Positions 2,300 through 31,191 of a stretch of DNA of 64,000 nucleotides are shown one piece after another. This stretch comes from Clostridiales bacterium. GTDB lineage: Bacteria > Bacillota > Clostridia > Lachnospirales > Lachnospiraceae. Position 1 is the stretch's first letter. Each line of letters starts with the position of its first letter. The position numbers and the translations under genes were made by a program. Below the pieces are notes generated by a model. It had not been told where the DNA came from. It saw only the letters and a program-made list of their open reading frames with translations, and made no database searches. Location of the stretch: positions 1,235 through 65,234 of the forward strand of contig JAJQIK010000043.1 of the NCBI GenBank assembly GCA_021199255.1. The letters are read 5' to 3'.

Positions 2300-2866
2300 T
2301 TAAGTCTTGTAATCTTCCATTATCACAGCCGCAATGATTTCCGCTGCCAGCCTGGAACCCTCCTCATTCGGATGGCTTCCATCCTCCGCATAAAGATTTC
2401 GATATGTACTCTGCTGATAAAACGCCGTTCCCACATCCGCAATCAAAGCGCCACCGATAAGTGCCGCTTCCCGGTATGCCTCCTGCAGCCCATGATACAT
2501 TTCATCGTAGTCCAGTCCGGACTTCTTCATCTGGGAACTATCCTTTTGATACGCCCATGTCAGATAAAGAACCGGCCTTGCCCCTGCTACATGAATCTGA
2601 ACGCAAAGCGCCGCGGCAGATTGCAGGAATTTATTTCTGGTTTTCACCGGAGCATTGCTCATCTCCTGCAGCACCACATAATCCCATTGTTCCTCAGAGA
2701 GTGCTTTCTGTGTCTTTGCACCCAGTTCTGTTTCAGGATCGAGCTGTTCTGCCAGCCTTGCACCGCCGCGCGTGTAATGCACAACCTCCGCTCCGGTTCT
2801 TTCGGCAAGCATTTGAGGCATATTATTTGTAAAAATATAGCTGTTCCCAAGCATTAAAATTCTCAT
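2300..2866 (-). CDS. SGNH/GDSL-family hydrolase
   Basis: MRILMLGNSY carries the GNS nucleophile block, and DGSHPN is the C-terminal Asp-x-x-His block. The start at 2866 follows an AGAGGAG RBS. Confidence 0.75.
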   Translation of the reverse strand: MRILMLGNSYIFTNNMPQMLAERTGAEVVHYTRGGARLAEQLDPETELGAKTQKALSEEQWDYVVLQEMSNAPVKTRNKFLQSAAALCVQIHVAGARPVLYLTWAYQKDSSQMKKSGLDYDEMYHGLQEAYREAALIGGALIADVGTAFYQQSTYRNLYAEDGSHPNEEGSRLAAEIIAAVIMEDYKT

Positions 2867-2965
2867 GTTTTTCTGCGCTCCTCTTTGAATTATAGCTTTT
2901 GCACCCATGAATCACAATCCCTTTCTTCTATGTAAGGGCGACTTTTCGCCGCCCTTCTTGTGGTA

Positions 2966-3652
2966 TCACTCCGCCGCTTCGACCAGTTCCACCAGCCGCC
3001 CATGCACCACATACCTCGCATTTTCAAAGGAGTACGCGCAGGTAGACAGGGTGATGATCCGGTCTTCTGTCGTCAGCCGGATGTTTGCTGTGAAATCAGA
3101 CTTTGCGCTGATCTCCCGCATCCACTCGGCAAATTCATGGGAAGTATCAAGCTGCATCCGATACGCTGATGAAGCCTCTGCCGTCGTATATCCGGCAAAA
3201 AGCTCCAGAAGATACGTCTTCCCTTCCACATTCAGATACATAACCGGATGCGCCTCATAATACTCCTGCTCTGCATACCGGATCAGACTGGCGAACATTT
3301 TTCCGCTGGCCATATGATGACCGTAAATAATCGTGTTTTCATCATCCGGACAGTAAAGCCATGCTACAATCTCCGGATTGATCTCTTGCAAAGCATTGAA
3401 ATCCACCGCCGGCGCTTCGGAAATTTCGGAGACGCTTTCCGAGGTAACAGGTACCGGACTTTCATCCGGCTCTCCGTTATCCCCGTTTTCGACTGGCTCC
3501 GCTACAGCCGACTCCGCCATTCTTTCATACAGCTCATCACCCTCCTGATATTCCAGTGCCGCATACAAAAGCCTTCCTCCAAAATAAGCCGCGACCCCGA
3601 AACATATCAGCGACAGACTCAGCGCCGCCCATTTCCGAATCTCTTTTGCCAT
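2966..3652 (-). CDS. srtB: Class B sortase
   Basis: An N-terminal TM anchor is present. IIYGHHMASGKMFASL and the catalytic TLSTC motif match sortases. The ATG at 3652 lies 1 nt after the stop of the adhesin sorting-signal frame. Confidence 0.85.
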   Translation of the reverse strand: MAKEIRKWAALSLSLICFGVAAYFGGRLLYAALEYQEGDELYERMAESAVAEPVENGDNGEPDESPVPVTSESVSEISEAPAVDFNALQEINPEIVAWLYCPDDENTIIYGHHMASGKMFASLIRYAEQEYYEAHPVMYLNVEGKTYLLELFAGYTTAEASSAYRMQLDTSHEFAEWMREISAKSDFTANIRLTTEDRIITLSTCAYSFENARYVVHGRLVELVEAAE

Positions 3653-16079: not shown

Positions 16080-17168
16080 TTAGTACTCAAAGCTTTCCAT
16101 ATACTTCATATATTTAACGACCATCAGGGCGATCTTAAAAGTAATCGCGTCCTCAAAAACCCTCAGATCCAGCCCCGTGCTCTTCTGCAGCTTATCCAAT
16201 CGGTATACCAGCGTATTACGATGAATAAAAAGCTGTCTGGAGGTCTCGGATACGTTCAGGGAATTTTCGAAAAATTTATTGATCGTTGTCAGCGTTTCTT
16301 CATCAAAATCATCCGGGCTCTTGCCGTCGAAAATTTCCTTAATAAACATCTTGCACAGGGGAATCGGAAGCTGATAAATCAATCGGCCGATTCCCAGCTC
16401 GCTGTACGCAATCACATCTCTCTCGTCAAAGAATATCTTGCCCACATCCAACGCCATCTTAGCTTCCTTATAGGAACGGCTCACTTCCTTGATTTCATTG
16501 ACGATCGTACCATAAGCGATACGAACCTTCTTAAAATTCTCCTTCTGTAAAAAGGCAACCGCAGCAGCCGCGCTTTTATCGATTTCCTTTACGCCCTCCC
16601 CCTCGGACAGATCCTTCACCACAATCACGTTATTCTCATCTACCGCGGTAATAAAGTCCTTGCTGTTGCTGCCGAAATAAGTACGCATGATTTCCAGTAC
16701 ATTGCTGTCCTTCGTATTATCCGTCTCGATAATCAGCGCTACGCGCTTGACGTCCGTCTGGATATGCAGCTTCTTGGCACGGCTGTAGATATCCACCAGC
16801 AGCAGATTATCCAATAACAGATTCTTGATAAAGTTATCCTTGTCGAAGCGCTCTTTATATGCCACCAGCAGATTCTGTATCTGAAACGCCACCATCTTGC
16901 CTATCATATAGACGTCTTCGCCAACTCCCCCCGCGATCAGAATATATTCCAACTGCTGCTCGTCAAAAATCTTAAAATACTGATATCCCTGTATCTCCTG
17001 AGAATCCGCGGGAGACTTGGCAAACTCCGCCGCCGACTTAGCGCACTGCTCCATATCGTTTTCCGTCATGGCAACTGCCTTCCCATCAATATCCATGACG
17101 CACAACTCCACTCTTGCGATGGCTTTTAACCCCTCAATGGTATTCTGCAAAATCTGATTTGAAATCAT
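16080..17168 (-). CDS. PucR/CdaR-family transcriptional regulator
   Basis: The C-terminal PucR HTH is present: NVSETSRQLFIHRNTLVYRLDKLQKSTGLDL. Confidence 0.8.
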   Translation of the reverse strand: MISNQILQNTIEGLKAIARVELCVMDIDGKAVAMTENDMEQCAKSAAEFAKSPADSQEIQGYQYFKIFDEQQLEYILIAGGVGEDVYMIGKMVAFQIQNLLVAYKERFDKDNFIKNLLLDNLLLVDIYSRAKKLHIQTDVKRVALIIETDNTKDSNVLEIMRTYFGSNSKDFITAVDENNVIVVKDLSEGEGVKEIDKSAAAAVAFLQKENFKKVRIAYGTIVNEIKEVSRSYKEAKMALDVGKIFFDERDVIAYSELGIGRLIYQLPIPLCKMFIKEIFDGKSPDDFDEETLTTINKFFENSLNVSETSRQLFIHRNTLVYRLDKLQKSTGLDLRVFEDAITFKIALMVVKYMKYMESFEY

Positions 17169-17778: not shown

Positions 17779-18681
17779 TCACAGCATAAATTCCAGACTC
17801 ATATAGGCAAGGCAGAGCACGATAGCGATAACAAGCGGAACGCTTACCAGATATTCCCTGATTTCCCCGCGTCCGCCCCATATCTGTTTTAAGGCGCCCT
17901 CCCGTTTCTCATTCTTCGCAATCCATACGAGTACGCAGAACGCAATGGGCGTTGTCACCGCGGCAATCACCAGATACACGGAAAGCGCAGCCAGCAGCTG
18001 ATTCTGTGTAATCTGCACCGTTTGAAGCTCCTGCCCCGGCATCATCTCCGACAGATACATCAGGCAGACCTGCCAGGCGTTAAAAAGCATATGGCAAAAC
18101 ACCGGTGCCCACAGGCTGCCCGCAGCTTCCATCAGAAGCGCCAGCAGGATTCCCAGGACGAAAGCATAAACGGCCTGATTTACATTCAGATGCATCAGCC
18201 CGAATAAAAACGCCGACAGAAGAATCGCCCGCAGCTTATTCCCCGACTTCAAATATCCCCGATATATCACGCCGCGAAATACAAACTCCTCGCAAAAAGG
18301 CCCGAACATACCGATCATAAACAGCATCACCGGGAACCTCGTCCCCACAATATCCTGCTCCACGGATACCACTGCATTTTCCGCAAAAAACATGGCGATT
18401 GCGTTGAGAACCGTGATAAGTGGCATAATCAGAAACGTAAAGAGCGCCGTCATCAGGAGGCTGGATACCTTAACCCTATGAAAACCCAGCCCTTCTTTCC
18501 TGCCGTTTGGGGAAAAGAGCAGGAACAGCAATGCCGGAACGATAATGATTCCTTCGCTGACCAGCAGATTAGCCACAATGCCAAACTCAATTCTGCCGCC
18601 CATAAACAGAAGGAACGCAAGCGCCGCAAAATGTACTAATATAATTGTCAAGAAAATCCAATTAGATTTTTTGCTGTTCAT
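17779..18681 (-). CDS. CPBP-family intramembrane glutamic endopeptidase (CAAX protease-like)
   Basis: Multiple TM helices are present, with the EEFVFRG, FGLMH and HMLFN motifs. Confidence 0.85.
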   Translation of the reverse strand: MNSKKSNWIFLTIILVHFAALAFLLFMGGRIEFGIVANLLVSEGIIIVPALLFLLFSPNGRKEGLGFHRVKVSSLLMTALFTFLIMPLITVLNAIAMFFAENAVVSVEQDIVGTRFPVMLFMIGMFGPFCEEFVFRGVIYRGYLKSGNKLRAILLSAFLFGLMHLNVNQAVYAFVLGILLALLMEAAGSLWAPVFCHMLFNAWQVCLMYLSEMMPGQELQTVQITQNQLLAALSVYLVIAAVTTPIAFCVLVWIAKNEKREGALKQIWGGRGEIREYLVSVPLVIAIVLCLAYMSLEFML

Positions 18682-19518
18682 TTAATCAATTCTCCGAATT
18701 GCCTTTTCCGTTATGGTAATCTTGCCCTCTTTGAGCAGACGTCCTACCGCCCGCTTAAACTCGTTCTTGCTCATTCCTGTCTCCCTGCGGATCACTTCCG
18801 GCGAAGCCTTATCATTAAAGGGCATCGCCCCGTCAAAGCTGTCTATAATAGACAATATTTTCTCCGCGTCCTGTCCCATCTGAAGATAGGCCTTTTCCCG
18901 AACGCTTAAATCCAGCTTCCCGTCCTCTTTGACTCCGGTCACCCGGGCGGTTATGACATCGGATATCTTCACATCGCCATACAGCTCCCTGGCGGGAACC
19001 AGCCCGGAATATTTGTCATCTACCGCCACAAAAGCGCCGAAATTCCGGCTGATTTCATACACCGTACCCGTAACTTTATCATCTTTATGATAAGGACTGT
19101 CCGTATCCAGATAAGGATACACATTCATGGTAGCGCAGAGCCTGTCGCTTTTATCAATATAGAGCGCCACCAGACATTCTTCTCCGGCGGATACCCTTCT
19201 GGTCTGTTCCCTATAGGGGAGCAGCAGCTCCTTTTCCAGTCCCCAGTCCAGAAAAGCGCCGATCTTCCCCACCTGCGCTACCTGTACTCTGCCTATGCCA
19301 TGAAGCGTCAGCTTCGGCATCTTTGTGGTGGCTATCAGCCTGTCCCTGGAATCGCGGTAAATAAACACCTCGACCTCGTCGCCTGTCTGAGCGTCCTCCG
19401 GAACCTGCTTCTTCGGGAGCAGCACCCGCTCCTCCTGATTCATACCATCGCCTAAATAGGCGCCAAACTCTACCATTTTCAGAATCTGCAGCGTCTGTAT
19501 TTCACCTAATCGTATCAT
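18682..19518 (-). CDS. cvfB: S1-domain RNA-binding protein, CvfB/YitL family
   Basis: Repeated S1-like blocks (EFGAYL, KIGAFLDWG, NFGAFVAV) are followed by a C-terminal winged helix. Confidence 0.8.
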   Translation of the reverse strand: MIRLGEIQTLQILKMVEFGAYLGDGMNQEERVLLPKKQVPEDAQTGDEVEVFIYRDSRDRLIATTKMPKLTLHGIGRVQVAQVGKIGAFLDWGLEKELLLPYREQTRRVSAGEECLVALYIDKSDRLCATMNVYPYLDTDSPYHKDDKVTGTVYEISRNFGAFVAVDDKYSGLVPARELYGDVKISDVITARVTGVKEDGKLDLSVREKAYLQMGQDAEKILSIIDSFDGAMPFNDKASPEVIRRETGMSKNEFKRAVGRLLKEGKITITEKAIRRID

Positions 19519-20243
19519 TATTGTCTCTCCGTCCTGTTCTCTAATTCCACAATACTGTAAGGCTTCCCATCTTCCCGGTTCAGGGACACTGTATACAGTC
19601 TTCCTTCCTCATTGACCGCCACTACCGGGTAGATCATATCCTCCAGTACCGCCTGGTTTTTATACTCCACGCGAAGCTGGCTGATCTCAAAATCCTCCGG
19701 AATATAGTCCATCGCCATGCGTACATATTGTCCGTTATTCACATGGTTGTTGGTGTCCAGATGATGATTTTTCACTGGAAAGGGTTCCCTCTCTTTCCCA
19801 TTCGACGGAATACTGATCTTACGGGGCGCGTACTCCATGGGATATTTCTCCTCCAAATGATAGATGGCGGGAAAATCCTTTTCCGCTTTGGCAGGCATTC
19901 CCCGTTCCAGATCCATCAGGCTCCAAATCGAGTTGGCGTAAGCCAGCACCTCCCCCTCCCGCGTTTTCATCCAGAAGTTACGGAAGCCCACAAAACCTTT
20001 AAACTCATAAGGGGAAGTGCCGATCACAATATTTTCGCACAAATGGGGGCGGCGGTTTACACAAATCTGCCACGCCGACAGCAGCCATACCTGATGCACT
20101 CTCTGAAAATAGTCTACGCCCAGACCCACATCTTCCGAATGAAAAATAGAAGCGTCCTGAAAATAATCCAAAAGCGACTCTATTGTCATGCTTCCATCTA
20201 CGCCCACTTCGCTGTATCTTACCCTGCCGTCAAATGTGTACAC
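19518..20243 (-). CDS. Acyl-ACP thioesterase
   Basis: The protein shows a double hot-dog acyl-ACP thioesterase pattern (RVRYSEV...; HHLDTNNHVNNGQY). Confidence 0.8.
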   Translation of the reverse strand: MYTFDGRVRYSEVGVDGSMTIESLLDYFQDASIFHSEDVGLGVDYFQRVHQVWLLSAWQICVNRRPHLCENIVIGTSPYEFKGFVGFRNFWMKTREGEVLAYANSIWSLMDLERGMPAKAEKDFPAIYHLEEKYPMEYAPRKISIPSNGKEREPFPVKNHHLDTNNHVNNGQYVRMAMDYIPEDFEISQLRVEYKNQAVLEDMIYPVVAVNEEGRLYTVSLNREDGKPYSIVELENRTERQ

Positions 20244-20392: not shown

Positions 20393-20448
20393 TTGACAAG
20401 AGGGAATAAATTTGTTAGTCTCGTAATCACAGTTAGTTATGACTAACT
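20393..20448 (+). promoter_or_regulatory. Candidate promoter (TTGACA-17-TAGTCT) and 7-4-7 palindromic operator AGTTAGT-TATG-ACTAACT for the nitrogenase-like operon
   Basis: TTGACA lies at 20393-20398 and TAGTCT at 20416-20421. The inverted repeat lies at 20431-20448, between the -10 box and the GGGAGG RBS. Confidence 0.4.
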
Positions 20449-20524
20449 CCTTATTGAGAAACGGATTTGCGGGTACGCGCCAAATCCACACGATACACCA
20501 AAAACAAAAGGGAGGATTTCTATT

Positions 20525-21310
20525 TTGTTAAAAATTGCAATTTACGGCAAGGGCGGCATCGGAAAATCTACAACTGCATCTAACCTATCCGCTGCCCTCA
20601 GCGATCTCGGATACAGGGTAATGCAAATTGGCTGCGACCCCAAATCCGATTCCACCAAAAATTTAATGTCCGGCCAGAAAATTCCAACTGTTTTAGACCA
20701 AATACGCGAAAAGGGCGTTGACAATGTACGTCTGGAGGACATTGTATTCACTGGATACGGCGGCATACTCTGTGTAGAGGCCGGCGGTCCCACCCCCGGC
20801 ATCGGCTGCGCCGGCCGCGGTATTATCACAGCCTTCGAAAAGCTGGAAGATTTAGGCGCTTATGAACAATATCGACCCGATATCGTTTTGTATGACGTTT
20901 TGGGCGACGTTGTCTGCGGGGGCTTTGCAATGCCCATCCGAGGCAATTATGCAGATCATGTGTTTATCGTGACCTCCGGCGAAATGATGGCGTTGTATGC
21001 CGCCTCTAATATTGCCAGCGCTATTCACAATTTTGGCAAACGCGGTTACGCCAGATTTTCCGGAATTATTTTAAACAAGCGGAATATAGACAACGAAGAA
21101 GCCCTTGTACAGAAAGCAGCCGAAGAGATGGACGGGCAGGTCATTTCTGTCATTCCCAGAGACTGTGCCGTACAGAAAGCAGAGGAACTGGGTATGACCG
21201 TTTTAGAGGCTCTGCCAGAAAGCGATATGGCACAATGCTATCGCAGGCTTGCTACAAAATTTTTGGAGGTGTGCGGACATGATGTGTTGCAATTGTCAGA
21301 ATCCATTTGA
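20525..21310 (+). CDS. NifH/BchL/CfbC-like ATP-dependent reductase (nitrogenase iron protein family)
   Basis: The start is a TTG with a GGGAGG RBS. The P-loop ([10 protein letters not shown]), switch I (CDPKSDST), cluster Cys (GIGCAGRGI) and switch II plus second Cys ([14 protein letters not shown]) are all present. Confidence 0.9.
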
Positions 21311-22553
21311 AAATACGCTGCGCTATTCTTCTCCCGCCCACGGCGGATGGGGAGTGGTGCGAATGGGGCACCTGCTGCCGGAAAGCTATCAGCTTTTTGT
21401 AAGCCCCGCTGCCTGTGGCCGTCATGGCGCCGTGGGCGCCTGTATGCAGGGCAGAAAAAGCCGGGTGTCTTACTTATATCTCCGGGAAGAGGAGATTGTA
21501 TCCGGCGGTTATGAAGATCAGCTTCTGGAAGCCGTAGACGAGCTTTTAGAATATCTCGCCAGCCATAATAAAACGCCTAAAGTGCTGATGATTTTTGTAA
21601 GCTGCATAGACGATTTGCTGGGTACCGACCATGACGCTTTGCTAATGCAGATACGGGAGCGCCATTCGGACGTCCGGTGTATATTCTGCCATATGAACCC
21701 GACGTCCATAGACACCAGCGTACCGCCTCCAGTCAATATCCAGAATAAAATATATAGTTTGCTGGATCCTGTCTCCAGCCATGACGATGGCGTCAACATG
21801 GTGGGAAATCTGGTGCCTCTGCTTCCGAACTGTGAGGCATATCGGCTGCTGCCCCAAATGAGCGCAAGCCCTGTGCGCCACCTGACAGACTATCGTACCT
21901 TTGCCGACTGGCAGGAAATGTCACGCAGCCGTCTGAATCTGGTCATTGCCCCGCCAGGGGAATATTCCGCAATGCAGATGCAGAAAAAGCACGGTACGCC
22001 ATATGAAATGGCGTTGACCTCTTACGACCCGTTGCAGGTGTCCCAAACCTACCGCGGCATCGCCGCCGCCTTGGGGGCGGATTGCCCCGACGTATCTGAT
22101 TACGAAACCCGCTGCGCGGAAGAAATGGAAAAAACCGCCAAAGCGCTGGGCGGAATCCCCGTGGTAATTGACGAGGATTCGGTTGCCCGCCCCTTCGATC
22201 TGGCAAAAGCGCTTTTAGAACACGGCTTTGCCCTCAAACGTATTATCGCGCAAAATGTAGTCCCCACCGATCAGCAGGCATATGAGTGGATACGGCGGCA
22301 CGCGCCCCAAATCGAAATCGTGCAGCCCCAACATCATCGGACTCTGCTATTTCATGATTCCATGCCGGACTGTCTGGCTCTTGGTTATAACAGCGGCTAC
22401 CTCACAGGTTCCAGCCATGTGATTCCGGCGGACGCACAACAGGGACATTGGGGTTATGCCGGCATTTTGGATATGATGCGCCTGTTCCGGGAAGGCGCGG
22501 CACATTCCACAGATTTAAAGGCTCTCATTGATGCAGCCGGATTGGTGGTGTAA
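21279..22553 (+). CDS. Nitrogenase component-1-type oxidoreductase subunit (NifD/E/BchN-like, 424 aa)
   Basis: The protein follows the Oxidored_nitro pattern ([21 protein letters not shown]). The start is an ATG at 21279 after a GGAGG RBS, and it overlaps the NifH-like gene by 32 nt. Confidence 0.8.
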
Positions 22554-23723
22554 ATGAAAGAATTATGGATTACTTTACCGGCCTTTGCGCCGGACTACTC
22601 CGGAGTCTGCTCCGCCATGTTTGAACTGGGAGGCATCTCGGTAATACACGATGCATCAGGCTGCACGGGCAATTATACCGGCTATGACGAACCTCGCTGG
22701 TATGGTTCTAATGCCAGGGTATTCTGCTCCGGCCTCCGGGAAATCGACGCGGTATTGGGCAGGGACGATAAACTGATCGACGACATTCTATACGCCTGCC
22801 GGGATTTGCAGCCGGCCTTTATCACTGTGCTTGGCAGCCCTGTCCCTATGGTCATAGGTACAGATATGAAGGGCATTGCCAAAGAATTGGAAAACCGCTC
22901 CGGCCTTCCCGCTTTTGGTTTTTCTACCAGCGGATTATATCTTTACAACAAGGGTATCTCGGAGGCTATGCAGGCTCTGGTACGGCGTTTTTCCAAGCCA
23001 ACGGCAGAGATCATACCAAATGCAGTCAATATTTTGGGTATGACGCCTTTAGACTTTTCCACTAATTCCAACGCTCAGGATTTGCCTCTTTGGTTGGAAC
23101 GGCAGGGCTTTACGGTACTGGGGCGGCTGATGATGGGAGTAACCCTGCATCAGATAGAAAACCTGGCAAAAGCCCAGGTCAATCTGGTGGTCACAGAGGC
23201 AGGAATGGAGACAGCAAAGCTGCTGAAACAAACGTACGGCACTCCTTATGTGGCGGCGCTCCCCATCTGCCAGGGGAAGAAGGTGGTCTCTCTTCTACAA
23301 AAAACCATAGAGGACGGCCAGGATCGAGTGTTGCTGGATCAGGCTGAGGAAGGCGGACTTTTGATTGTTGCAGAACAAATGCTTGGCAATGCGCTGCGTC
23401 ATGAGATTCTAAGACAAAGCCCCAGGACACGAGTCACCGTAGCTACGATGTTCGGCCTGAATCCGGCCATTGCGTCTCCAGGCGACCAGAATATCCCCAA
23501 CGAGGAAAGCCTGCGTTACATTCTGGGAAGCGGCCGCTTTCATCAGGTGGTCGGCGACCCCTTATTTAAAGAGCTGATTTCCCCAGCGGATCAGATAGAT
23601 TTTTATCCTATTCCTCACCCGGCGGTTTCCAGTAAGCTTCACTGGGATGAAGTCCCCGCCTGGTTGGGGACAGATATAGAACAACTTATTCACGCTATTA
23701 CAAAAGGAGGAGAAACAACATGA
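22554..23723 (+). CDS. Nitrogenase component-1-type oxidoreductase subunit (NifK/N/BchB-like, 389 aa)
   Basis: IHDASGCTGNY and VLGSPVPMVIGTD match the Oxidored_nitro pattern. The ATG directly abuts the upstream stop (TAAATG). Confidence 0.8.
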   Translation: MKELWITLPAFAPDYSGVCSAMFELGGISVIHDASGCTGNYTGYDEPRWYGSNARVFCSGLREIDAVLGRDDKLIDDILYACRDLQPAFITVLGSPVPMVIGTDMKGIAKELENRSGLPAFGFSTSGLYLYNKGISEAMQALVRRFSKPTAEIIPNAVNILGMTPLDFSTNSNAQDLPLWLERQGFTVLGRLMMGVTLHQIENLAKAQVNLVVTEAGMETAKLLKQTYGTPYVAALPICQGKKVVSLLQKTIEDGQDRVLLDQAEEGGLLIVAEQMLGNALRHEILRQSPRTRVTVATMFGLNPAIASPGDQNIPNEESLRYILGSGRFHQVVGDPLFKELISPADQIDFYPIPHPAVSSKLHWDEVPAWLGTDIEQLIHAITKGGETT

Positions 23724-24919
23724 AACATACACTGAAAAAATGGCTCTCACTGATTTTTGCCGCCACCCTTGCGTCAGGCGTTTTAACGGGCTGCGCATCT
23801 ACGTCCACGGAATCTGCCAGTATCGGCGGACAGATATTGGAAGAAGCGCAGGAAGAATCAGAAAACGAAATGATTACGCTGGAAGAAGCGCAGGAAGCAT
23901 CTGAAAGCGAAATGATCACCCTGGTGGACGACCGGGGCATCGAAGTCACCTTTCCCAAAAATCCGCAGCGTATCGTCATTACTTCCATCCTGCCCCTCAC
24001 CTCCGTCTATTGCCTCTACCGAGGCGGCACAGACAACCTGGTGGGAATTGCCGCAGCAGCCATGAGCGCCGCGGAACATTCCTATTTGGCGAAGATTTAT
24101 CCCGAAATATTGGATTTAGAATATAAATTTTCAGAAGGCGGGGAGGTCAACGTTGAGGAAGTGCTGAAGCTTGAGCCGGACGTAATTTTCTATCGCGCCA
24201 ACGAGGAAGCGGAAGGGGATATGTATATCAATGCCGGAATCCCTGCCGTTGCTTTCAGTACCAGCAAGTTCGGCTCCGATACCATCGCTACTTTTGCCGG
24301 TTGGATTGAGCTGTTAGATCAGATTTTTGGAGGTGGCGACCAGACGCAGGGAATCGTTGAATATGGCTACGAGATTCTGGATATGCTGCATGAGCGTACT
24401 GCGGATTTAACGGAAGAAGAACGCCCCAAGGCGATTGTATTCTCCGGATATTCCGGCAATCAGCTAACGGCAGCCGGCGGCAATATTTTTGCGGAATTTT
24501 ACCTTACCGAGGGCGGCGGCGTTAACGTGGCTTCAGAGCTTTCCGGTTCTCAGGCCGTCAATATGGAACAGATTTACGAATGGAACCCGGACGTGATTTT
24601 CATTAATAACTTCTGCCCATATGTCCCTGAAGATTTCTATAACAACGCCATCGAGGGCTATGATTGGAGCAATGTTTCCGCCGTGCAGAACCAACAGGTT
24701 TATAAATATCCTCTGGGAATGTACCGCTGGTATCCTCCCGCGGGCGACGCGCCCCTGAGTCTGGTTTGGGTTGCAAAGCAACTACATCCGGAACTGTTTG
24801 AGGACATTGATATGGATCAGATGGTGAAAGACTATTATCAGGAATACTATGGATACGCCCTGACCGACGAGGATCTGGCTGAAATTTATAATCCGCCCAG
24901 GGAGGCTGCGAATTACTGA
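23720..24919 (+). CDS. ABC transporter substrate-binding lipoprotein, FecB/BtuF (Peripla_BP_2) type
   Basis: A lipobox (LTGC) follows the signal peptide. Blocks typical of iron-siderophore, heme or corrinoid binding proteins are present (RIVITS..., KLEPDVIF, WNPDVIFI). The gene overlaps its upstream neighbour by 4 nt. Confidence 0.85.
   Translation: MKHTLKKWLSLIFAATLASGVLTGCASTSTESASIGGQILEEAQEESENEMITLEEAQEASESEMITLVDDRGIEVTFPKNPQRIVITSILPLTSVYCLYRGGTDNLVGIAAAAMSAAEHSYLAKIYPEILDLEYKFSEGGEVNVEEVLKLEPDVIFYRANEEAEGDMYINAGIPAVAFSTSKFGSDTIATFAGWIELLDQIFGGGDQTQGIVEYGYEILDMLHERTADLTEEERPKAIVFSGYSGNQLTAAGGNIFAEFYLTEGGGVNVASELSGSQAVNMEQIYEWNPDVIFINNFCPYVPEDFYNNAIEGYDWSNVSAVQNQQVYKYPLGMYRWYPPAGDAPLSLVWVAKQLHPELFEDIDMDQMVKDYYQEYYGYALTDEDLAEIYNPPREAANY
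23839..23922 (+). repeat. 42-nt tandem duplication in the lipoprotein linker (EEAQEESENEMITL x2)
   Basis: GGAAGAAGCGCAGGAAG...ATGAT.AC.CT occurs twice in tandem. Confidence 0.8.
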
Positions 24920-25947
24920 TGGAAAAAACAAAACGATTTCAGAAATACATTTTCATAGCGCTATGGATAACACCTGTTATTACAGCTCTCGTCTGCATTG
25001 GCATCGGCCGGTATTCCCTGAGCTTCTGGCGGACTCTGGAAATTTTGTTCTCACCCTTGCTCCAGCACGTCCCGCACATAGAGATTACCGATATGGAACG
25101 GTCTGTGGTCTTTGGGATTCGCCTGCCGCGAATCCTGCTGGCCATTGGCTGCGGCGCGGCGCTATCATCTTCCGGCGTTGCCTTTCAAAGCCTGTTCAAT
25201 AACCCGCTGGCCACACCGGATACCCTGGGCGTCTCCAGCGGCGCCTCCTGCGGAGCTGTCATTGCGTTAATGCTTGGCATGAATATGATTGGCGTCCAAA
25301 TCACGGCTTTGCTTTTTGGACTTGGCGCCGTTGCTTTAACCTGGACGGTTTCCAAGGTGCGGGGACAGAATTCCATTATTATGATTGTATTATCCGGCAT
25401 GGTCGTATCCGCCCTTTTCGAAGCCCTGGTGTCCCTGATGAAGTATGTAGCCGACCCTAACGACGTACTGCCCACCATTACCTATTGGCTGATGGGCAGC
25501 CTGAATCATTCCAGCTACTCCAGCTTACTGCTGGGAATGCCTTTTATTCTTGCAGGAATCCTTATTGTCTTTCTCTTACGGTGGCGGCTGAATATCCTGG
25601 CTTTAAACGAAGATGAAGCAAAATCTATGGGCATAAACCTGAAAGCCATGCGGCTGTTCGTCATCGTAGCCGCCACTATGATGACGGCAGCTTCTGTTTC
25701 CATGTGTGGGAAAATTGGATGGATTGGTCTGCTGATTCCCCATATTTCACGAATGTTGCTGGGCGGAAACACACAACGTACCGTCCCCGCCTGTATCAGC
25801 CTTGGCGCCGTGTTTATGCTGCTGATCGATACCCTGTCCCGCAGTATAATGGCCGCGGAGATTCCCGTCTCCATTTTAACGGCCATCATCGGCGCACCCA
25901 TTTTTATATCGCTTTTGCGAAAAACAAAAGGAGGTACGCAAGTATAA
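24919..25947 (+). CDS. ABC transporter permease, FecCD/BtuC family
   Basis: About 9-10 TM helices are predicted, with FecCD blocks (RLPRILLA, GWIGLLIPH, GAPIF). The start overlaps the upstream stop (TGATG). Confidence 0.9.
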   Translation: MEKTKRFQKYIFIALWITPVITALVCIGIGRYSLSFWRTLEILFSPLLQHVPHIEITDMERSVVFGIRLPRILLAIGCGAALSSSGVAFQSLFNNPLATPDTLGVSSGASCGAVIALMLGMNMIGVQITALLFGLGAVALTWTVSKVRGQNSIIMIVLSGMVVSALFEALVSLMKYVADPNDVLPTITYWLMGSLNHSSYSSLLLGMPFILAGILIVFLLRWRLNILALNEDEAKSMGINLKAMRLFVIVAATMMTAASVSMCGKIGWIGLLIPHISRMLLGGNTQRTVPACISLGAVFMLLIDTLSRSIMAAEIPVSILTAIIGAPIFISLLRKTKGGTQV

Positions 25948-26735
25948 TGATTTTTTCTGTAGAAAACGGTTCTTTTGCTTATAAAAAAGAAGAAATTTTA
26001 ACAAACCTGTCTTTTTCCGTAGAATCCGGTGAAATTCTGGCGATTCTTGGCTCCAACGGCGTCGGGAAAACCACGCTGCTGCGCTGTATGATGGGCTTGC
26101 TGCCATGGAAATCCGGACGCAGCACTATCGACGGACGCCCCATTAACGAATTTACCTCCAGACAGCTTTGGAGGATCCTCTCCTATGTTCCCCAGGCCAG
26201 GGGCGCGTCCTTTGCCTACACGGCAAGGGAAATGGTACTTTTGGGTCGCAGTGCGCACTTAGACGTTCTCAAACAGCCGAAACAAAAGGATCTGGACATC
26301 GTAGAGCGTTCCATGGAAGAAGTCGGGATTATCCACCTGGCAGAGAAAAAATGCACTCAAATGAGTGGCGGTGAGCTGCAAATGGTACTGATTGCCAGAG
26401 CGTTGACCGCAGAACCCCAGCTTTTGGTTCTGGACGAGCCAGAGTCTAACCTGGACTTTAAAAACCAGCTCATCATTCTGGATACCATCCGCCGTCTCGC
26501 CAAAGAGAAGCATATTTCCACTATTATCAATACCCATTATCCAGATCATGCCCTCAAGCTGTCAGATAAGGCTCTTTTGCTGCAACAACCGGGAGAAAAC
26601 AAATATGGCGCTACAGCTGAGATCATCAACGAAGAAAATATGCGCTGCTCTTTTGGCGTAAACGTGTCGATTCCCGATTTTTGCGTAGACGGCATCCGCT
26701 ACAATGCGGTAGTTCCACTATCCATTGTTTCATAG
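25947..26735 (+). CDS. ABC transporter ATP-binding protein (FepC/BtuD-like)
   Basis: Walker A (GSNGVGKTT), the signature motif MSGGELQMV and Walker B (LLVLDEPESNLD) are present. The true start is the ATG at 25947 (TAATGA overlap). The longer track ORF is an artefact. Confidence 0.9.
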   Translation: MIFSVENGSFAYKKEEILTNLSFSVESGEILAILGSNGVGKTTLLRCMMGLLPWKSGRSTIDGRPINEFTSRQLWRILSYVPQARGASFAYTAREMVLLGRSAHLDVLKQPKQKDLDIVERSMEEVGIIHLAEKKCTQMSGGELQMVLIARALTAEPQLLVLDEPESNLDFKNQLIILDTIRRLAKEKHISTIINTHYPDHALKLSDKALLLQQPGENKYGATAEIINEENMRCSFGVNVSIPDFCVDGIRYNAVVPLSIVS

Positions 26736-26758: not shown

Positions 26759-27985
26759 CTAACAAATTAAATCAGGAAACAGTTCTATGCTTCTCCCCAA
26801 AATCCCCTTCATATAGGCAATGGCTGTTCCATAGTTGGTGATCGGCACTCCCGCGTCCGCGGCGCACTGCATACGGCAGCGCACCTCTCGCTCGTTGAGC
26901 ATACAGCCCCCACAGTGGATCACCATGGCATAAGGAGACAAATCCTCCGGGAAGCCCATGCCCGACGAGGTTTCTATCACCAGCTCCCTGCCGGTATATT
27001 TATGCAGCCAGCGGGGAATCTTGACCGTACCGATATCGTCGCATTGTCTGTGATGGGTGCAGCCCTCCGAAATCAGCACACGGTCGCCGTCCTTCAGCTT
27101 ATCGATCGCCGTCACGCCCTGTACCGCCATGTGAAGAAGCCCTTTATACCGCGCCATCAGAATCGAAAAGGAAGTAAGCGTAATATCCTCCGGCACAATC
27201 CGGGCTACCTCTTCAAACGCCTGACTGTCCGTAACCACCATGGCGGGTTTCACTCCCAGACGCGCCAGCGTCTCTTGCAGTTCGCTCTCCTTTACCACAA
27301 TGGAAACCGCCCCCGCTTCCAGCAAATCCCTGATTGCCTGCTGCTGGGGCAGAATCAGCCTGCCCTTAGGCGCGGCGGAATCGATAGGCACTACCAGCAC
27401 CACAAAATCACCGGGGCGTACCAAATCCCCCAGCAGTCTCTTTCCGTCCTCCTGGGAGGCCGCCAGAGAGCCGATAGCTTCCTTCAATTCATGGATTCCC
27501 TGTCCCTTTAACGCGCTGACTGCAATCACGGCGGCGGCTTTATCCGCCCACAGTCCTTCGCAGGCCGCGGAGGCCTTCTCCGACGCCGCTCCCGCATCCG
27601 TCTTGTTAACCGCCACGATATAGGGGATTTGTTTCTGCCTGAAAAGCGCCGTCAATTCCTCATCGCAGGAGCCGGCTCCCTCTACTGCGTCTACTACCAG
27701 CACGGCTATGTCGGTTCTGTTCAAAACCTGTCTGGTCTTCTTTACGCGAAGTTCTCCCAGGCTTCCCTCATCATCAAAGCCCGGCGTATCAATTATTACC
27801 ACCGGCCCCAGCGGCAAGAGCTCCATCGCTTTCCAGACAGGGTCCGTGGTGGTTCCTTTCTGTTCCGAAACCACCGCCAGCTCCTGCCCGGTCACCGCAT
27901 TGACCAGACTCGACTTGCCTGCGTTCCTTCTGCCGAAAAAACCGATATGGATTCGTTCTCCCGAAGGTGTGTTGTTCATTCCCAT
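26759..27985 (-). CDS. hydF: [FeFe]-hydrogenase H-cluster maturation GTPase HydF
   Basis: The G1 motif (GRRNAGKSS) is present. The C-terminal cluster motif is CTHH...HCGGC. Confidence 0.9.
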   Translation of the reverse strand: MGMNNTPSGERIHIGFFGRRNAGKSSLVNAVTGQELAVVSEQKGTTTDPVWKAMELLPLGPVVIIDTPGFDDEGSLGELRVKKTRQVLNRTDIAVLVVDAVEGAGSCDEELTALFRQKQIPYIVAVNKTDAGAASEKASAACEGLWADKAAAVIAVSALKGQGIHELKEAIGSLAASQEDGKRLLGDLVRPGDFVVLVVPIDSAAPKGRLILPQQQAIRDLLEAGAVSIVVKESELQETLARLGVKPAMVVTDSQAFEEVARIVPEDITLTSFSILMARYKGLLHMAVQGVTAIDKLKDGDRVLISEGCTHHRQCDDIGTVKIPRWLHKYTGRELVIETSSGMGFPEDLSPYAMVIHCGGCMLNEREVRCRMQCAADAGVPITNYGTAIAYMKGILGRSIELFPDLIC

Positions 27986-28092
27986 AGCAATCCGCCTTTC
28001 CCATATACCCTGTTCTTCTTTATGATTTTCCCTTTGTTTGTGCTGCGCTGTTGTCCCCGGCACGGCCTAAGGCCTGCCGCAGGCCGCCGGTT

Positions 28093-29532
28093 TTAGAAAC
28101 GGAAATCTCTGATTCCCTCTTCAATCTTAGCCAGATGGTCTTTGGCAATCTCTCTCACATTTTCTTTCGGAATATTCTCTAATTCCGCCTGAATCAGCGC
28201 CTCGCCAATGGCTTTCGTATCCTCCGCCGCGTAATCTGTCAGATATTCCTTCAGGGTCATCAGGGCATTGGGGTGACAGCAATTCTGAATCTGTCCCGAT
28301 TTACACAGGCTCATGAAACGGTCTCCCGTCCTGCCCTCTCTATAACATGCCGTACAGAAGGAGGGAATATATCCCATTTCCATCAGCCACTTCACCACCT
28401 CGTCCAGCGTGCGCTGGTCGGATACGTCAAACTGTTCCGTATCCGTGGGGCGAATGTCTTCCGCATAACCGCCTACCGTGGTTCGGGAGCCGCCGGAAAT
28501 CTGGGATACGCCCAGACGGATTACCTTCTCGCGCACAGCCTGACTCTCTCTGGTGGAGATAATCATACCCGTATAAGGCACCGCTATACGGATCAGTGCG
28601 CAAATCTTGGCAAAAATATCGTCGCTGATGCCGTTATCAAAAGCGTCCGGGTCAATATCATCGGCTCTCTTAATACGGGGCACGCTGATGGTATGAGGCC
28701 CTACTCCGTGGACAGCCTCTAAATGCTCCGCATGCATCAGAAGTCCCGCAAACTCATATTTATAGCGTTCCAGGCCAAACAGCACGCCCAGTCCCACATC
28801 GTCGATGCCGCCCTCCATCGCCCTGTCCATCGCCTCCGTATGATAATTGTAATCATGCTTTGGCCCCGTAGGGTGAAGCTGCAGATAGCTTTCCTTATGA
28901 TAGGTTTCCTGAAAAAGAATATAGGTGCCGATTCCGGCCTCCTTCAGCATACGGTATTCCTCCACCGTGGTAGCCGCAATATTGACATTCACACGGCGGA
29001 TCGCCCCGTTTTTATGCTGAATAGAGTAAATCGTTTTAATACATTCCAAAATATATTCAATGGGATTATTCCTGGGATCTTCTCCCGCTTCAATGGCCAG
29101 ACGCTTATGCCCCATATCCTGCAGCGCGATCACCTCCTGTTTGACCTCCTCCTGCGTCAGCTTCTTGCGGGGGATATGTTTATTTTTCATATGGTACGGA
29201 CAATACACACAGCCGTTGACGCAGTAATTGGACAGATACAGGGGCGCGAAAATTACGATACGGTTTCCATAATAAGCTAGTTTGATCTCCTCCGCCAACG
29301 CATACATCCGCTCCAATACCTCCGGGTCGTCGCAGGCCAGCAGTACCGACGCCTCTCTGTGGTTCAAGCCGGCGCACACGGTAGAATTGCCCTCCCTGCG
29401 GGGTCTGGCGCTCTCCAGAATCTGATCGATCAATTCCCTGTTATCCTTATTCTGCTCCGCGTATTCCAGCGTCGCCAGAATCTCCTCGTGATTAATAAAA
29501 TCGTCTGCACATAATGATTTCGGATCATACAT
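28093..29532 (-). CDS. hydG: [FeFe]-hydrogenase radical-SAM maturase HydG
   Basis: The radical-SAM motif CVNGCVYC is present. The C-terminal auxiliary cluster motif is CTACYR...C. Confidence 0.9.
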   Translation of the reverse strand: MYDPKSLCADDFINHEEILATLEYAEQNKDNRELIDQILESARPRREGNSTVCAGLNHREASVLLACDDPEVLERMYALAEEIKLAYYGNRIVIFAPLYLSNYCVNGCVYCPYHMKNKHIPRKKLTQEEVKQEVIALQDMGHKRLAIEAGEDPRNNPIEYILECIKTIYSIQHKNGAIRRVNVNIAATTVEEYRMLKEAGIGTYILFQETYHKESYLQLHPTGPKHDYNYHTEAMDRAMEGGIDDVGLGVLFGLERYKYEFAGLLMHAEHLEAVHGVGPHTISVPRIKRADDIDPDAFDNGISDDIFAKICALIRIAVPYTGMIISTRESQAVREKVIRLGVSQISGGSRTTVGGYAEDIRPTDTEQFDVSDQRTLDEVVKWLMEMGYIPSFCTACYREGRTGDRFMSLCKSGQIQNCCHPNALMTLKEYLTDYAAEDTKAIGEALIQAELENIPKENVREIAKDHLAKIEEGIRDFRF

Positions 29533-29538
29533 TGTACT

Positions 29539-30594
29539 TTACCTTCCTTTCTTTTCTCCCAGGCTTCCCTTCCAGTCGCCTCTGGTTTCCGCGATTTGAT
29601 ATCCTGCGGAAGCAACCCTTCGTTTCATACACTCAATACATTCCGCCGCTTCGTCCCCGGTACAGATCTTGTTATCATAGAGGGCGTACTGTTTTCTCAC
29701 AGATACCGGCGACAGATTCGGCATCACCACGTTGGCTCCCGCCTTTAACCCCAGTTCTCTCCCCTGCGGGTGAATCGTCCCCAACGCCGTAGTGGACGGA
29801 ATCAACGCCTGCGGTAGCAGCAGCCTGGTCAGCGCCACCATCGTAAGCGTCCGTTCCAGACTCCCCTGCGCCTTATCCCGGAAGGGCGTATCATGGTGCG
29901 GAATAAAAGGCCCGATGCCCACCATATGAGGCTGAAGTTCCCGCATAAACCGCATATCCGCAATCAGATCCTCCGTAGTCTGATAAGGGGAGCCCACCAT
30001 AAATCCGCATCCCACCTGATAGCCGATTTCCTTCAGATGATACAGGCATTGGATACGGTGATCGTAGCTTAATTCCGCCGGATGCAGCCTCCCATAGTGG
30101 GTTTTTCCCGCCGTCTCATGCCGCAGCAGATAACGATCCGCCCCCGCATCATACCAGCGCTGATAGTCGGGCTTCTCCCGTTCGCCCAGCGAAAGGGTCA
30201 CCGCACAGTCCGGATATCTCCTTTTGATCTCTCTTACCAGCTCCGCCACATATTCTGTGGTATAAAAAGAATCCTCTCCGCCCTGCAGGACATAGGTGCG
30301 AAACCCCAATCCATATCCAATCCGGCAACATTCCAATATCTGTTCCTTAGATAAACGATAGCGCTCCGCGTGGAAATTGCTCCTGCGGATACCGCAATAA
30401 AGACAGTCGTTTCTGCAATAACTGGAAACCTCTATCAATCCTCTGATGTAAACGTCCGTGCCATAATGCCGCCTGCGGATTCGGTCAGCCTCCGCATAGA
30501 GCAGGGTTCTGTCATATTCTCCTTCTATCAGCCGCTTCCACTCTTCGTCTGTCGGGTCATGCCCTGCCGCCAGCTTATCAATCAGGTCTTTCAT
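29539..30594 (-). CDS. hydE: [FeFe]-hydrogenase radical-SAM maturase HydE
   Basis: The CRNDCLYCGIR motif and a BioB-like fold pattern are present. Confidence 0.9.
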   Translation of the reverse strand: MKDLIDKLAAGHDPTDEEWKRLIEGEYDRTLLYAEADRIRRRHYGTDVYIRGLIEVSSYCRNDCLYCGIRRSNFHAERYRLSKEQILECCRIGYGLGFRTYVLQGGEDSFYTTEYVAELVREIKRRYPDCAVTLSLGEREKPDYQRWYDAGADRYLLRHETAGKTHYGRLHPAELSYDHRIQCLYHLKEIGYQVGCGFMVGSPYQTTEDLIADMRFMRELQPHMVGIGPFIPHHDTPFRDKAQGSLERTLTMVALTRLLLPQALIPSTTALGTIHPQGRELGLKAGANVVMPNLSPVSVRKQYALYDNKICTGDEAAECIECMKRRVASAGYQIAETRGDWKGSLGEKKGR

Positions 30595-31119: not shown

Positions 31120-31191
31120 CTGGGCTACAAGGATTCGAACCTTGAAATGACGGAGTCAGAGTCCGTTGCCTTACCATTTGGCGATAGCCCA
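31120..31191 (-). tRNA. tRNA-Gln (anticodon CTG)
   Basis: I folded the cloverleaf by hand. The acceptor stem pairs TGGGCTA with TAGCCCA. The D loop contains GG. The anticodon stem pairs ACGGA with TCCGT, and the loop is CT-CTG-AC. The T arm is CAAGG-TTCGAAT-CCTTG. No CCA is encoded. Confidence 0.9.

Follow-up and report, generated by a model that had tools for sequence, protein, structure and literature searches.

Introduction

An uncharacterized "NifHEN-like" clade, with two cysteines in its alpha-like subunit and one in its beta-like subunit, was described by Dos Santos et al. (2012, BMC Genomics 13:162, PMC3464626), who gave as examples Desulfitobacterium hafniense (Dhaf_1539/1540), Methanocorpusculum labreanum (Mlab_1040/1039), Coprococcus catus, and Dorea longicatena. 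Members were found in human gut Firmicutes and were co-located with ATP-binding cassette (ABC) transporters and, in some genomes, including that of Coprococcus catus, with hydrogenase maturases. Kim et al. (2012, PMC3306737) likewise reported nifHDK homologs with transporter genes in D. hafniense, and a passage in Garcia et al. (2022) cites a 2020 mini-review (Ghebreamlak and Mansoorabadi) for possible "metal transport" roles. A recent review (North and Shafaat 2026, Chemical Reviews, PMC13474568) lists functions only for Nfa, CfbCD, methylthio-alkane reductase (MAR), ISR, DPOR, and COR, and counts the uncharacterized nitrogenase-like systems among the greatest challenges of the field. Here, we analyze such a system in a 64-kb stretch of DNA (the window) from a "Clostridiales bacterium" metagenome-assembled genome. 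It is a six-gene operon, Nfl-ABC, in which three reductase genes (nflHDK) are followed by the genes of an ABC importer. Statements of absence from this genome refer to the 64 kb of the window.

An initial annotation of the window had regarded the pairing of reductase and importer as unreported. Both 2012 studies had already noted it, and the architecture has been known since then. Our search of the full-text literature found no functional study of the Nfl-ABC clade. We report that the linkage of reductase and importer is obligatory and that NflHDK, judged by sequence, matches none of the characterized enzymes with which it was compared. We propose, with a probability of roughly 40%, that the operon encodes an iron-starvation-induced importer of a small metal chelate together with a system for the ATP-driven, low-potential reduction of that chelate.

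Results

Layout of the operon

Six open reading frames on the + strand (20525-26735) encode a NifH-like ATPase, two Oxidored_nitro subunits, a substrate-binding protein (SBP) that is a lipoprotein, a FecCD permease, and an ABC ATPase. With their control region they are arranged as follows.

20393-20421, + strand: putative sigma-70 promoter, TTGACA, 17 nt, TAGTCT (a weak -10)
20431-20448: predicted operator, the 7-4-7 palindrome AGTTAGT-TATG-ACTAACT, with the core GTTAG-N6-CTAAC at 20432-20447
20525-21310, + strand: nflH, NifH-like Fe protein of 261 amino acids (aa), with a TTG start and the ribosome-binding site GGGAGG at 20510-20515
21279-22553, + strand: nflD, alpha-like Oxidored_nitro subunit of 424 aa (Pfam PF00148, 1.4e-23)
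22554-23723, + strand: nflK, second Oxidored_nitro subunit of 389 aa (Pfam PF00148, 5.3e-28)
23720-24919, + strand: SBP gene, substrate-binding lipoprotein of 399 aa (Pfam Peripla_BP_2, 5.3e-21)
24919-25947, + strand: permease gene, FecCD/BtuC-type protein of 342 aa from a type II ABC importer (Pfam FecCD, 1.1e-85)
25947-26735, + strand: ATPase gene, ABC ATPase of 262 aa (Pfam ABC_tran, 2.6e-31)

All five junctions, read directly from the window, are overlaps or direct abutments: a 32-nt overlap between nflH and nflD, TAAATG between nflD and nflK, an ATGA overlap between nflK and the SBP gene, TGATG between the SBP and permease genes, and TAATG between the permease and ATPase genes. These junctions suggest translational coupling of the six genes. 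Within the operon, a promoter and terminator scan found no credible promoter or terminator above shuffled controls. No homolog of nifB, nifE, nifN, or nifV was found in the window (tblastn, E ≤ 1e-5). The six-gene operon described in the initial annotation was thus recovered in its reading frames, coordinates, and junctions, as were the absence of these four nif genes and, by Pfam PF00148, the assignment of the 424- and 389-aa proteins to Oxidored_nitro.

Reductase and importer genes are linked across related loci

A scan of one genome per species found relatives in 198 species, and 80 loci (given L numbers) were examined. They came from Lachnospiraceae, Oscillospiraceae, Christensenellaceae, Peptococcaceae, Syntrophomonadaceae, Synergistaceae, and Treponema. 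The order nflH-nflD-nflK was kept in the 80 loci wherever the contig reached far enough. All 48 loci with at least 3.6 kb of sequence after nflK had an SBP, a permease, and an ATPase gene downstream on the same strand; these 48 belong to Lachnospiraceae, Oscillospiraceae, Peptococcaceae, Syntrophomonadaceae, Synergistaceae, and Treponema. Many loci had a second or third SBP gene. The conserved neighborhood, for which the initial annotation had suggested looking in Clostridia, extends to Synergistaceae and Treponema.

Identities to the window proteins were strongly correlated within modules (D with K, r = 0.86; permease with ATPase, r = 0.88; permease with SBP, r = 0.86) and uncorrelated between them (D with permease, r = 0.03). 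Since each module is coherent and the two vary independently, the modules appear to have been exchanged between operons while their linkage was kept. We concluded that the reductase-importer linkage is obligatory and is conserved across several bacterial phyla. The opposite view, that the reductase and ABC genes are mere neighbors, each set with its own expression and use, could appeal to an extra operator copy between nflK and the SBP gene in L014, L015, and L020, where the ABC genes may have a promoter of their own under the same regulator. However, that suggested internal promoter bears the same operator; the window genes overlap or abut, with no credible internal terminator; and the linkage has survived module exchange across phyla in 48 of 48 loci. 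We regard the absence of a functional link as scarcely credible.

The family is large, with 1228 representatives at 50% identity (E ≤ 0.001), and in a public assembly collection a single variant of the SBP turns up in 382 indexed blocks. The homologs include a member from Desulfitobacteriaceae (P0116) at 44% identity. Carriers include gut, rumen, and oral anaerobes and also free-living cellulolytic and syntrophic bacteria. In Treponema saccharophilum, the operon lies on a 424-kb replicon, and its RefSeq names are generic. In a published table for Clostridioides difficile (PMC11633334), a NifH gene and an "iron ABC transporter permease" stand two locus tags apart; this tractable pathogen may have a related operon.

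NflHDK is set apart from characterized nitrogenase-like enzymes

NflH matches Pfam Fer4_NifH at 1.3e-98, and its best PDB match to a NifH is at 4e-79. We read in it the P-loop, switch I (DPKSDST), and the motifs CAGRG (Cys95) and DVVCGGF (Cys131), and the motif residues are at least 95% conserved among 76 homologs; the P-loop, both switches, and both cluster cysteines had been pointed out in the initial annotation. The NCBIfam scores are 349 bits for nifH (cut-off, 394), 348 for CfbC (cut-off, 402), 217 for BchL, and 203 for BchX, which places NflH just below the NifH and CfbC cut-offs, with equal scores, and far higher on these two models than on BchL or BchX. NflH is therefore best described as a predicted ATP-dependent electron donor with a bridging [4Fe-4S] cluster at Cys95 and Cys131.

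NflD and NflK were placed against NifDK/EN, BchNB, BchYZ, and CfbD with curated hidden Markov models and against MarDK by PDB sequence and fold; family profiles were built from 79 D and 74 K sequences. No characterized clade was matched. The best curated NCBIfam model for NflD was nifE, which scored 40 bits (cut-off, 505), and the best for NflK were nifE (58 bits), BchB (51), and CfbD (31), all well under their cut-offs. The nifD and nifK models scored at most 34 bits on either protein against cut-offs above 480. BchB (cut-off, 490) and BchN (20 bits; cut-off, 420) scored on K only, leaving D unmatched, and the CfbD model (methan_mark_13), with a cut-off of 268, likewise gave no match on D. 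In the PDB, NflD had barely any sequence match (best, NifE at E = 0.006); NflK matched NifE at 1e-9 and MarD/MarK at 0.005-0.03, the solved MAR chains 9fmg and 9d9u matching K in that range and D not at all. The family profiles of both subunits scored best on NifE (46-80 bits; K, 51-80), with NifD at 15-56, BchB at 11-49, BchZ at no more than 20, BchY at no more than 5, and BchN below zero. The D and K profiles matched each other at merely 30-39 bits.

The AlphaFold model of NflD (mean confidence score [pLDDT], 88.8) gave Foldseek TM-scores of 0.55-0.70, at no more than 18% identity, to NifE/N, NifK, AnfK, BchN/B, and MarD (MarD, 0.55); the model is about equidistant from all of these, and we gave up placement of NflD by fold. 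A profile search of 1.84 billion proteins was also set aside as a means of finding an outgroup, since the 150 matches listed all scored at least 263 bits and were family members.

D and K were then aligned with NifD, NifK, NifE, NifN, BchN, and BchB. D-Cys46 aligns with the HGPVGC cysteine (alpha-Cys88), D-Cys109 with the SEC(P) cysteine alpha-Cys154 of NifD, and K-Cys37 with beta-Cys95. K has no cysteine at the alpha-Cys154 position, and the alpha-Cys62 cysteine is lost from both subunits, so that only these three residues match P-cluster positions and the six-cysteine set of nitrogenase is incomplete. D and K also lack the full combination of six P-cluster cysteines with the iron-molybdenum cofactor (FeMo-co) ligands alpha-Cys275 and alpha-His442 that marks a nitrogenase. 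Four cysteines are invariant: D-Cys46, D-Cys109, K-Cys37, and the family-specific K-Cys58. Other conserved residues are His49, His138, His201, Asp111, Asp112, and Asp117 of NflD (95-100% of 79 sequences) and the invariant His32 with Asp33, Asp45, Glu46, and Arg48 of NflK. A tblastn search for NifB found no homolog, either in the window or in the 80 loci. With four conserved cysteines at the expected interface and no NifB, a single inter-subunit [4Fe-4S] cluster is to be expected.

NflHDK has the sequence hallmarks of the nitrogenase superfamily, a NifH-type ATPase with adjoining Oxidored_nitro subunits, and electron transfer from the one to the others would be ATP dependent. Its sequences indicate that it is neither a nitrogenase nor a DPOR, COR, CfbCD, or MAR, and we describe it as a nitrogenase-like two-component system with short and very divergent D and K subunits. 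Because no curated model was reached and the likeness in fold and profile is weak, the pair would form a deep, separate branch of the superfamily. The view that this is not a nitrogenase was therefore upheld by the low nifD and nifK scores, the incomplete P-cluster and FeMo-co ligands, and the absence of nifB, nifE, and nifN from the window, and the cluster cysteines, whose loss in orthologs would have spoken against the initial annotation, are retained (at least 95% of 76 NflH sequences; invariant in D and K). Its "group IV" label suits NflH by score, but the D/K pair could not be assigned, with the sequences compared here, to any of the named subgroups IV-A to IV-F or VI.

Two observations concern the variety of the family. 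Five representatives of 800-870 aa (P0202, P0251, P0257, P0258, and P0262) match the D profile in two stretches, which suggests that some members of the family have fused genes, D-K or H-D. In L054 (Syntrophomonadaceae), a truncated, solitary D-like paralog of 284 aa and 24% identity lies at 2581-3435, after a flavodoxin gene and upstream of the main operon.

A conserved operator precedes nflH

The -10 of the window promoter matches TATAAT at three of six positions and was not listed by the promoter scan. We placed the promoter there because the operator begins 6-12 nt downstream of a clear sigma-70 -10 in L070, L086, and L088. The palindrome by itself is not significant, with one exact match in the window versus 0.84 expected. 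Of 72 related loci, however, 52 carry its core, with no more than a single mismatch, in the 300 nt before nflH, and the density of exact sites was 2.82/kb upstream of nflH versus 0.019/kb elsewhere, a 146-fold enrichment; 11 tandem pairs are spaced 34 bp. The palindrome is thus predicted to be a conserved operator, located just downstream of the -10 in the position of a repressor site.

The same operator is found before feoB in L054 (1800-7700) and L061 (2566-5017), at a distance of 22-24 nt, and before DUF3793-flavodoxin operons in L034 (6983-8013) and L047 (8505-9602), at 19-21 nt. Genes for DtxR-family repressors are found nearby in L046, L054, L061, and L063. The sharing of the operator is probably the signature of an iron-starvation regulon, though the flavodoxin could equally be the electron donor of NflH. 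The genes concerned may belong to an undescribed iron-responsive regulon of anaerobic Bacillota with a Crp-like or DtxR-like regulator. A Crp/Fnr-family gene adjoins the operon in 22 of the 80 loci, either divergently or as the first operon gene behind its own operator copy, and the 5-N6-5 architecture of the operator fits that family. We considered a metal or heme sensor in these Crp-like regulators and discarded it, as the 22 sequences share no conserved Cys or His.

The window holds no second operator site and no homolog of the Crp-like regulator, DtxR, FeoB, flavodoxin, or G3E GTPase. The initial annotation had assigned the palindrome to a dedicated repressor encoded elsewhere. The conserved operator and the lack of a candidate regulator in the window agree with this, but "dedicated" is probably wrong, given the operator copies at feoB and flavodoxin genes.

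Two other modes of control were rejected. A search with Rfam at gathering thresholds gave only tRNAs in the window and seven loci, which argues against a riboswitch of the corrinoid type, and a stem-loop at approximately 20463-20487 was not significant as a structured leader (z = -1.9). Separately, three Synergistaceae loci (L058, L071, and L075) lack the GTTAG operator. About 220 nt upstream of nflH, they have almost the same promoter (TTGACATT..GTTTGT..GTGCGAACATAT), with a long leader rich in GC, suggesting that this lineage is controlled differently.

The SBP of the importer resembles binders of small metal chelates

The SBP has a lipobox (LTGC, residues 22-25), a Glu-rich linker, and a Peripla_BP_2 domain, and Cys25 is 96% conserved in homologs. 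Its PDB sequence matches include 4ovk (3e-48) and MolA (HI_1472; 6e-27). The predicted model (pLDDT, 93.4) was compared with the PDB by Foldseek, with the following query-normalized TM-scores.

4ovk (Veillonella parvula), unliganded structure: 0.84
MolA, molybdate/tungstate: 0.80
4hn9 and 4pag, unliganded structures: 0.73-0.76
Helicobacter pylori CeuE, Ni-(His)2: 0.73
YiuA, Fe with catechol fragments: 0.69-0.76
BhuT, HmuT, ShuT, and BtuF, heme or B12: 0.55-0.64

All of the ligand-bound structures among the closest relatives contain a metal species, and the modeled fold favors a small metal chelate over heme or B12 as the class of ligand. The identity to solved SBPs is 19-30%, so the identity of the ligand cannot be transferred from them. 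The permease scored 197 bits on the NCBIfam BtuC model and 179 on FecD, both under cut-off, and the nearest models of the ATPase were of heme, corrinoid, and FecE type (~150-160 bits, also under cut-off). FecCD permease, ABC ATPase, and Peripla_BP_2 SBP together make up a type II (BtuCD/FecCD-type) importer, and the model confirms the fold. Two SBP homologs that we looked up, one from Pyramidobacter and one from a very widespread gut contig, both lay inside the same type of operon; where checked, in these two cases, the SBP subfamily is operon specific. "Metal chelate, tetrapyrrole or corrinoid," as the substrate had been guessed to be, can be narrowed: the SBP fold favors the first of the three, and heme and corrinoids are less likely, with no cobalamin riboswitch found.

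The importer could instead bring in heme or another metallo-tetrapyrrole, with NflHDK reducing a ring double bond and thereby loosening the metal or yielding a usable cofactor under anoxia. Every characterized [4Fe-4S]-only relative acts on tetrapyrroles (PMC13474568). Peripla_BP_2 proteins include heme and B12 binders, the nearest ATPase models are of heme and corrinoid type, and heme as an iron source would suit an iron-starvation regulon. Some carriers belong to genera that have oral members (Treponema lecithinolyticum, Fretibacterium, and Pyramidobacter), and oral sites are heme-rich niches. However, the SBP model is closer to the small-chelate binders (TM-score, 0.69-0.84) than to the heme and B12 binders (0.55-0.64), neither a cobalamin riboswitch nor any other was found in the window and seven loci, genes for making or salvaging tetrapyrroles are not a recurrent feature of the flanks in the 80 loci, and the family is also present in free-living cellulolytic and syntrophic bacteria. 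We consider a tetrapyrrole substrate unlikely.

The ligand might also be free of metal, for example an apo-chelator or a quinone-like or aromatic compound reduced for catabolism or detoxification, with only an indirect link to iron. MAR and ISR do act on small organic molecules brought in by ABC systems, and the Crp/Fnr-type regulators of the 22 loci, whose ligand-binding domain lacks conserved Cys and His residues, would be suited to sensing a small molecule. But MAR and ISR use importers of other classes and a radical S-adenosylmethionine (SAM) partner that is absent here, and the metal species in all liganded structures among the nearest SBP relatives, the iron-related neighbors, and the shared operator point elsewhere. 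A metal-free substrate seems improbable to us.

Neighboring genes

In the window, hydF (26759-28063), hydG (28093-29532), and hydE (29539-30594) lie on the - strand and converge on the operon, 23 nt from the ATPase stop codon. HydE, HydF, and HydG homologs were absent from all 80 related loci; the adjacency was therefore treated as local, and a functional link to HydEFG was rejected. Genes that recur in the flanks of the 80 loci encode regulators, G3E GTPases, flavodoxin, FeoB, and DtxR-type proteins; no radical SAM genes recur there. An accessory module adjoins the operon in some loci: 10 have a HypB/UreG-like G3E GTPase, 8 a soluble ABC-type ATPase without a membrane partner, and 7 an SBP_bac_6 protein. 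It is found in L045 (4901-7283), L052 (9622-12418), L048, L055, L057, L060, L073, L080, L053, and L074. The sequences suggest that the G3E GTPase module is a metallochaperone-like set for metal handling.

These neighbors bear on the possibility that NflD2K2 is not a catalyst but a scaffold like NifEN, on which the imported metal would be assembled, assisted by NflH, into a cofactor for another enzyme. NifH and NifEN cooperate in cofactor maturation, the profiles of D and K score best on NifE (46-80 bits versus 15-56 for NifD), and NifEN is among the top Foldseek matches. The HypB/UreG-like GTPase module of 10 loci would fit such a role, as would the HydE, HydF, and HydG genes adjoining the operon in the window, as in Coprococcus catus (PMC3464626). 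On the other hand, neither the window nor any locus has a NifB-type radical SAM enzyme, HydEFG is found in 0 of 80 related loci, no candidate client enzyme recurs in the flanks, and an operator common to feoB and flavodoxin genes suits the scavenging of a nutrient better. A scaffold function is, in our estimate, rather unlikely, and somewhat more so than a tetrapyrrole substrate.

The remaining neighbors appear unrelated. Upstream, all on the - strand, are genes for a PucR-type regulator that has a GGDEF-like domain (16080-17168), a protease of CAAX/Rce1-like type (17779-18681), an S1 RNA-binding protein resembling CvfB (18682-19518), and an acyl-ACP thioesterase (19518-20243). The same strand carries a tRNA gene at 31120-31191.

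Discussion

We favor the import of a small metal chelate under iron starvation, followed by its reduction. When metal is short, most likely iron, the repressor would leave the GTTAG-N6-CTAAC operator just past the promoter, and the operon would be switched on for metal acquisition. The lipoprotein SBP would capture a small metal chelate outside the cell, and the FecCD permease and ABC ATPase would import it. In the cytoplasm, the NflH dimer would take electrons from flavodoxin or ferredoxin and pass them, with ATP hydrolysis, to an NflD2K2 core holding one inter-subunit [4Fe-4S] cluster, with D-Cys46, D-Cys109, K-Cys37, and probably K-Cys58 as ligands. The core would then reduce the imported complex, working at a potential that ordinary reductases do not reach, and the metal would be released or handed on. 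The identity of the ligand, the action of D and K on it, the direction and purpose of the reduction, and the response to iron in this organism are all things that we infer.

Several points weigh against this proposal. Strict anaerobes have ferredoxin at about -450 mV, and an ATP-dependent step would be needed only for complexes of very low potential. The link of the operator to feoB and flavodoxin comes from four loci, none of these genes is in the window, and an oxidative-stress or redox regulon would fit them equally. The nearest SBP relatives include molybdate and nickel binders, so the metal need not be iron. By profile, D and K are nearer to NifE, a scaffold, than to any catalytic subunit. 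Finally, the characterized [4Fe-4S]-only nitrogenase-like enzymes (DPOR, COR, and CfbCD) reduce a tetrapyrrole ring and not a metal centre (PMC13474568).

A more specific version would make Nfl-ABC a metal-acquisition branch of the superfamily, with ATP-driven release of the metal from the imported chelate and repression of the operon at the GTTAG-N6-CTAAC operator, an undescribed iron-starvation element. The chelate would then have a potential too low for ferredoxin or flavin reductases, as do, for example, ferric catecholates, and strict anaerobes could draw on such complexes while the ligand was spared. Going by the sequences, we hold this version to be tentative and on the doubtful side. 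If true, metal release would join N2 fixation, tetrapyrrole ring reduction, and C-S cleavage as a fourth chemistry of the superfamily, and it would constitute a hitherto unknown route of metal piracy in the anaerobic gut.

Whatever the reaction, the clade is abundant, recognized, and tractable in gut, rumen, and oral anaerobes, and cultured carriers exist, among them Clostridium porci WCA-389, [Clostridium] aminophilum DSM 10710, Faecalispora sporosphaeroides DSM 1294, Anaerobacterium chartisolvens DSM 27016, Treponema saccharophilum, and Pyramidobacter. The importer narrows the search for the substrate, which must be something that a dedicated importer brings in. The shared operator suggests iron limitation as a growth condition, and the SBP class suggests trying Fe, Ni, and Mo chelates before heme or B12. 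In gut metagenomes, nifH-like genes of this kind are a source of false "diazotroph" calls.

Comparison with known systems

NifEN is the best profile relative of D and K (46-80 bits) and is among the top fold matches; it has an inter-subunit [4Fe-4S] cluster and works with a NifH-type ATPase. Nfl differs in its low identity (~16-19%), in D and K scores of 40-58 bits against a NifE cut-off of 505, in having no NifB and hence no supply of L-cluster, in a cysteine distribution of 2+2 instead of 3+1, and in lying among importer genes rather than nif genes.

Like CfbCD (IV-B), Nfl has a short catalytic component of ~390-420 aa, and NflH scores about the same on CfbC (348) as on NifH (349). CfbD holds only a [4Fe-4S] cluster, symmetric across its dimer (PMC13474568). 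Unlike Nfl, with its two distinct subunits, CfbD is a homodimer from one gene; the CfbC and CfbD cut-offs are not reached, the carriers are bacteria and not methanogens, and no cfb genes are nearby. With DPOR and COR (Group V), Nfl shares the three-gene, two-component architecture and TM-scores of ~0.64-0.67 to BchN/BchB. Those enzymes have their [4Fe-4S] cluster at the N/B interface, with a reduced set of cysteines (3 Cys + Asp). In contrast, the Bch models score far under cut-off here, NflH is nearer to NifH and CfbC, and there is no photosynthesis context.

MAR (MarBHDK, IV-C) and ISR (IsrBHDK, IV-F) offer a parallel in logic, in that a nutrient from a co-regulated ABC transporter is processed during scavenging under limitation. 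They need a radical SAM partner, MarB or IsrB, and MAR has P-like and L-like clusters. Their transporters are of the methionine or sulfonate type and not FecCD. Nfl further differs from MAR, ISR, and Nfa (IV-A) in lacking a NifB homolog, a comparison that for IsrB, which is not NifB-like, was made indirectly from the clustering of flanking genes, and in having flanks without a context of sulfur or nitrogen metabolism. As judged by described features, it also differs from Group VI (Elusimicrobia type), since its flanks are not rich in radical SAM genes and NflH is NifH-like and not Group V-like.

On the importer side, MolABC (HI1470-72), H. pylori FecDE/CeuE, and Yersinia YiuABC have the same parts: a FecCD permease, an ABC ATPase, and a Peripla_BP_2 SBP (cluster A-II). 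The SBP shares just 19-30% identity with theirs, and, to our knowledge, none of the three has been described with a nitrogenase-like reductase.

The nearest described relative is the clade of Dos Santos et al. (2012), membership being judged by the published description. Nfl has cysteines at alpha-88, alpha-154, and beta-95, like that clade, and no FeMo-co ligands, and the window has both an ABC transporter and hydrogenase maturase neighbors. To that description, the present analysis adds a second invariant K cysteine (Cys58), strict synteny, the predicted operator, and the class of the SBP.

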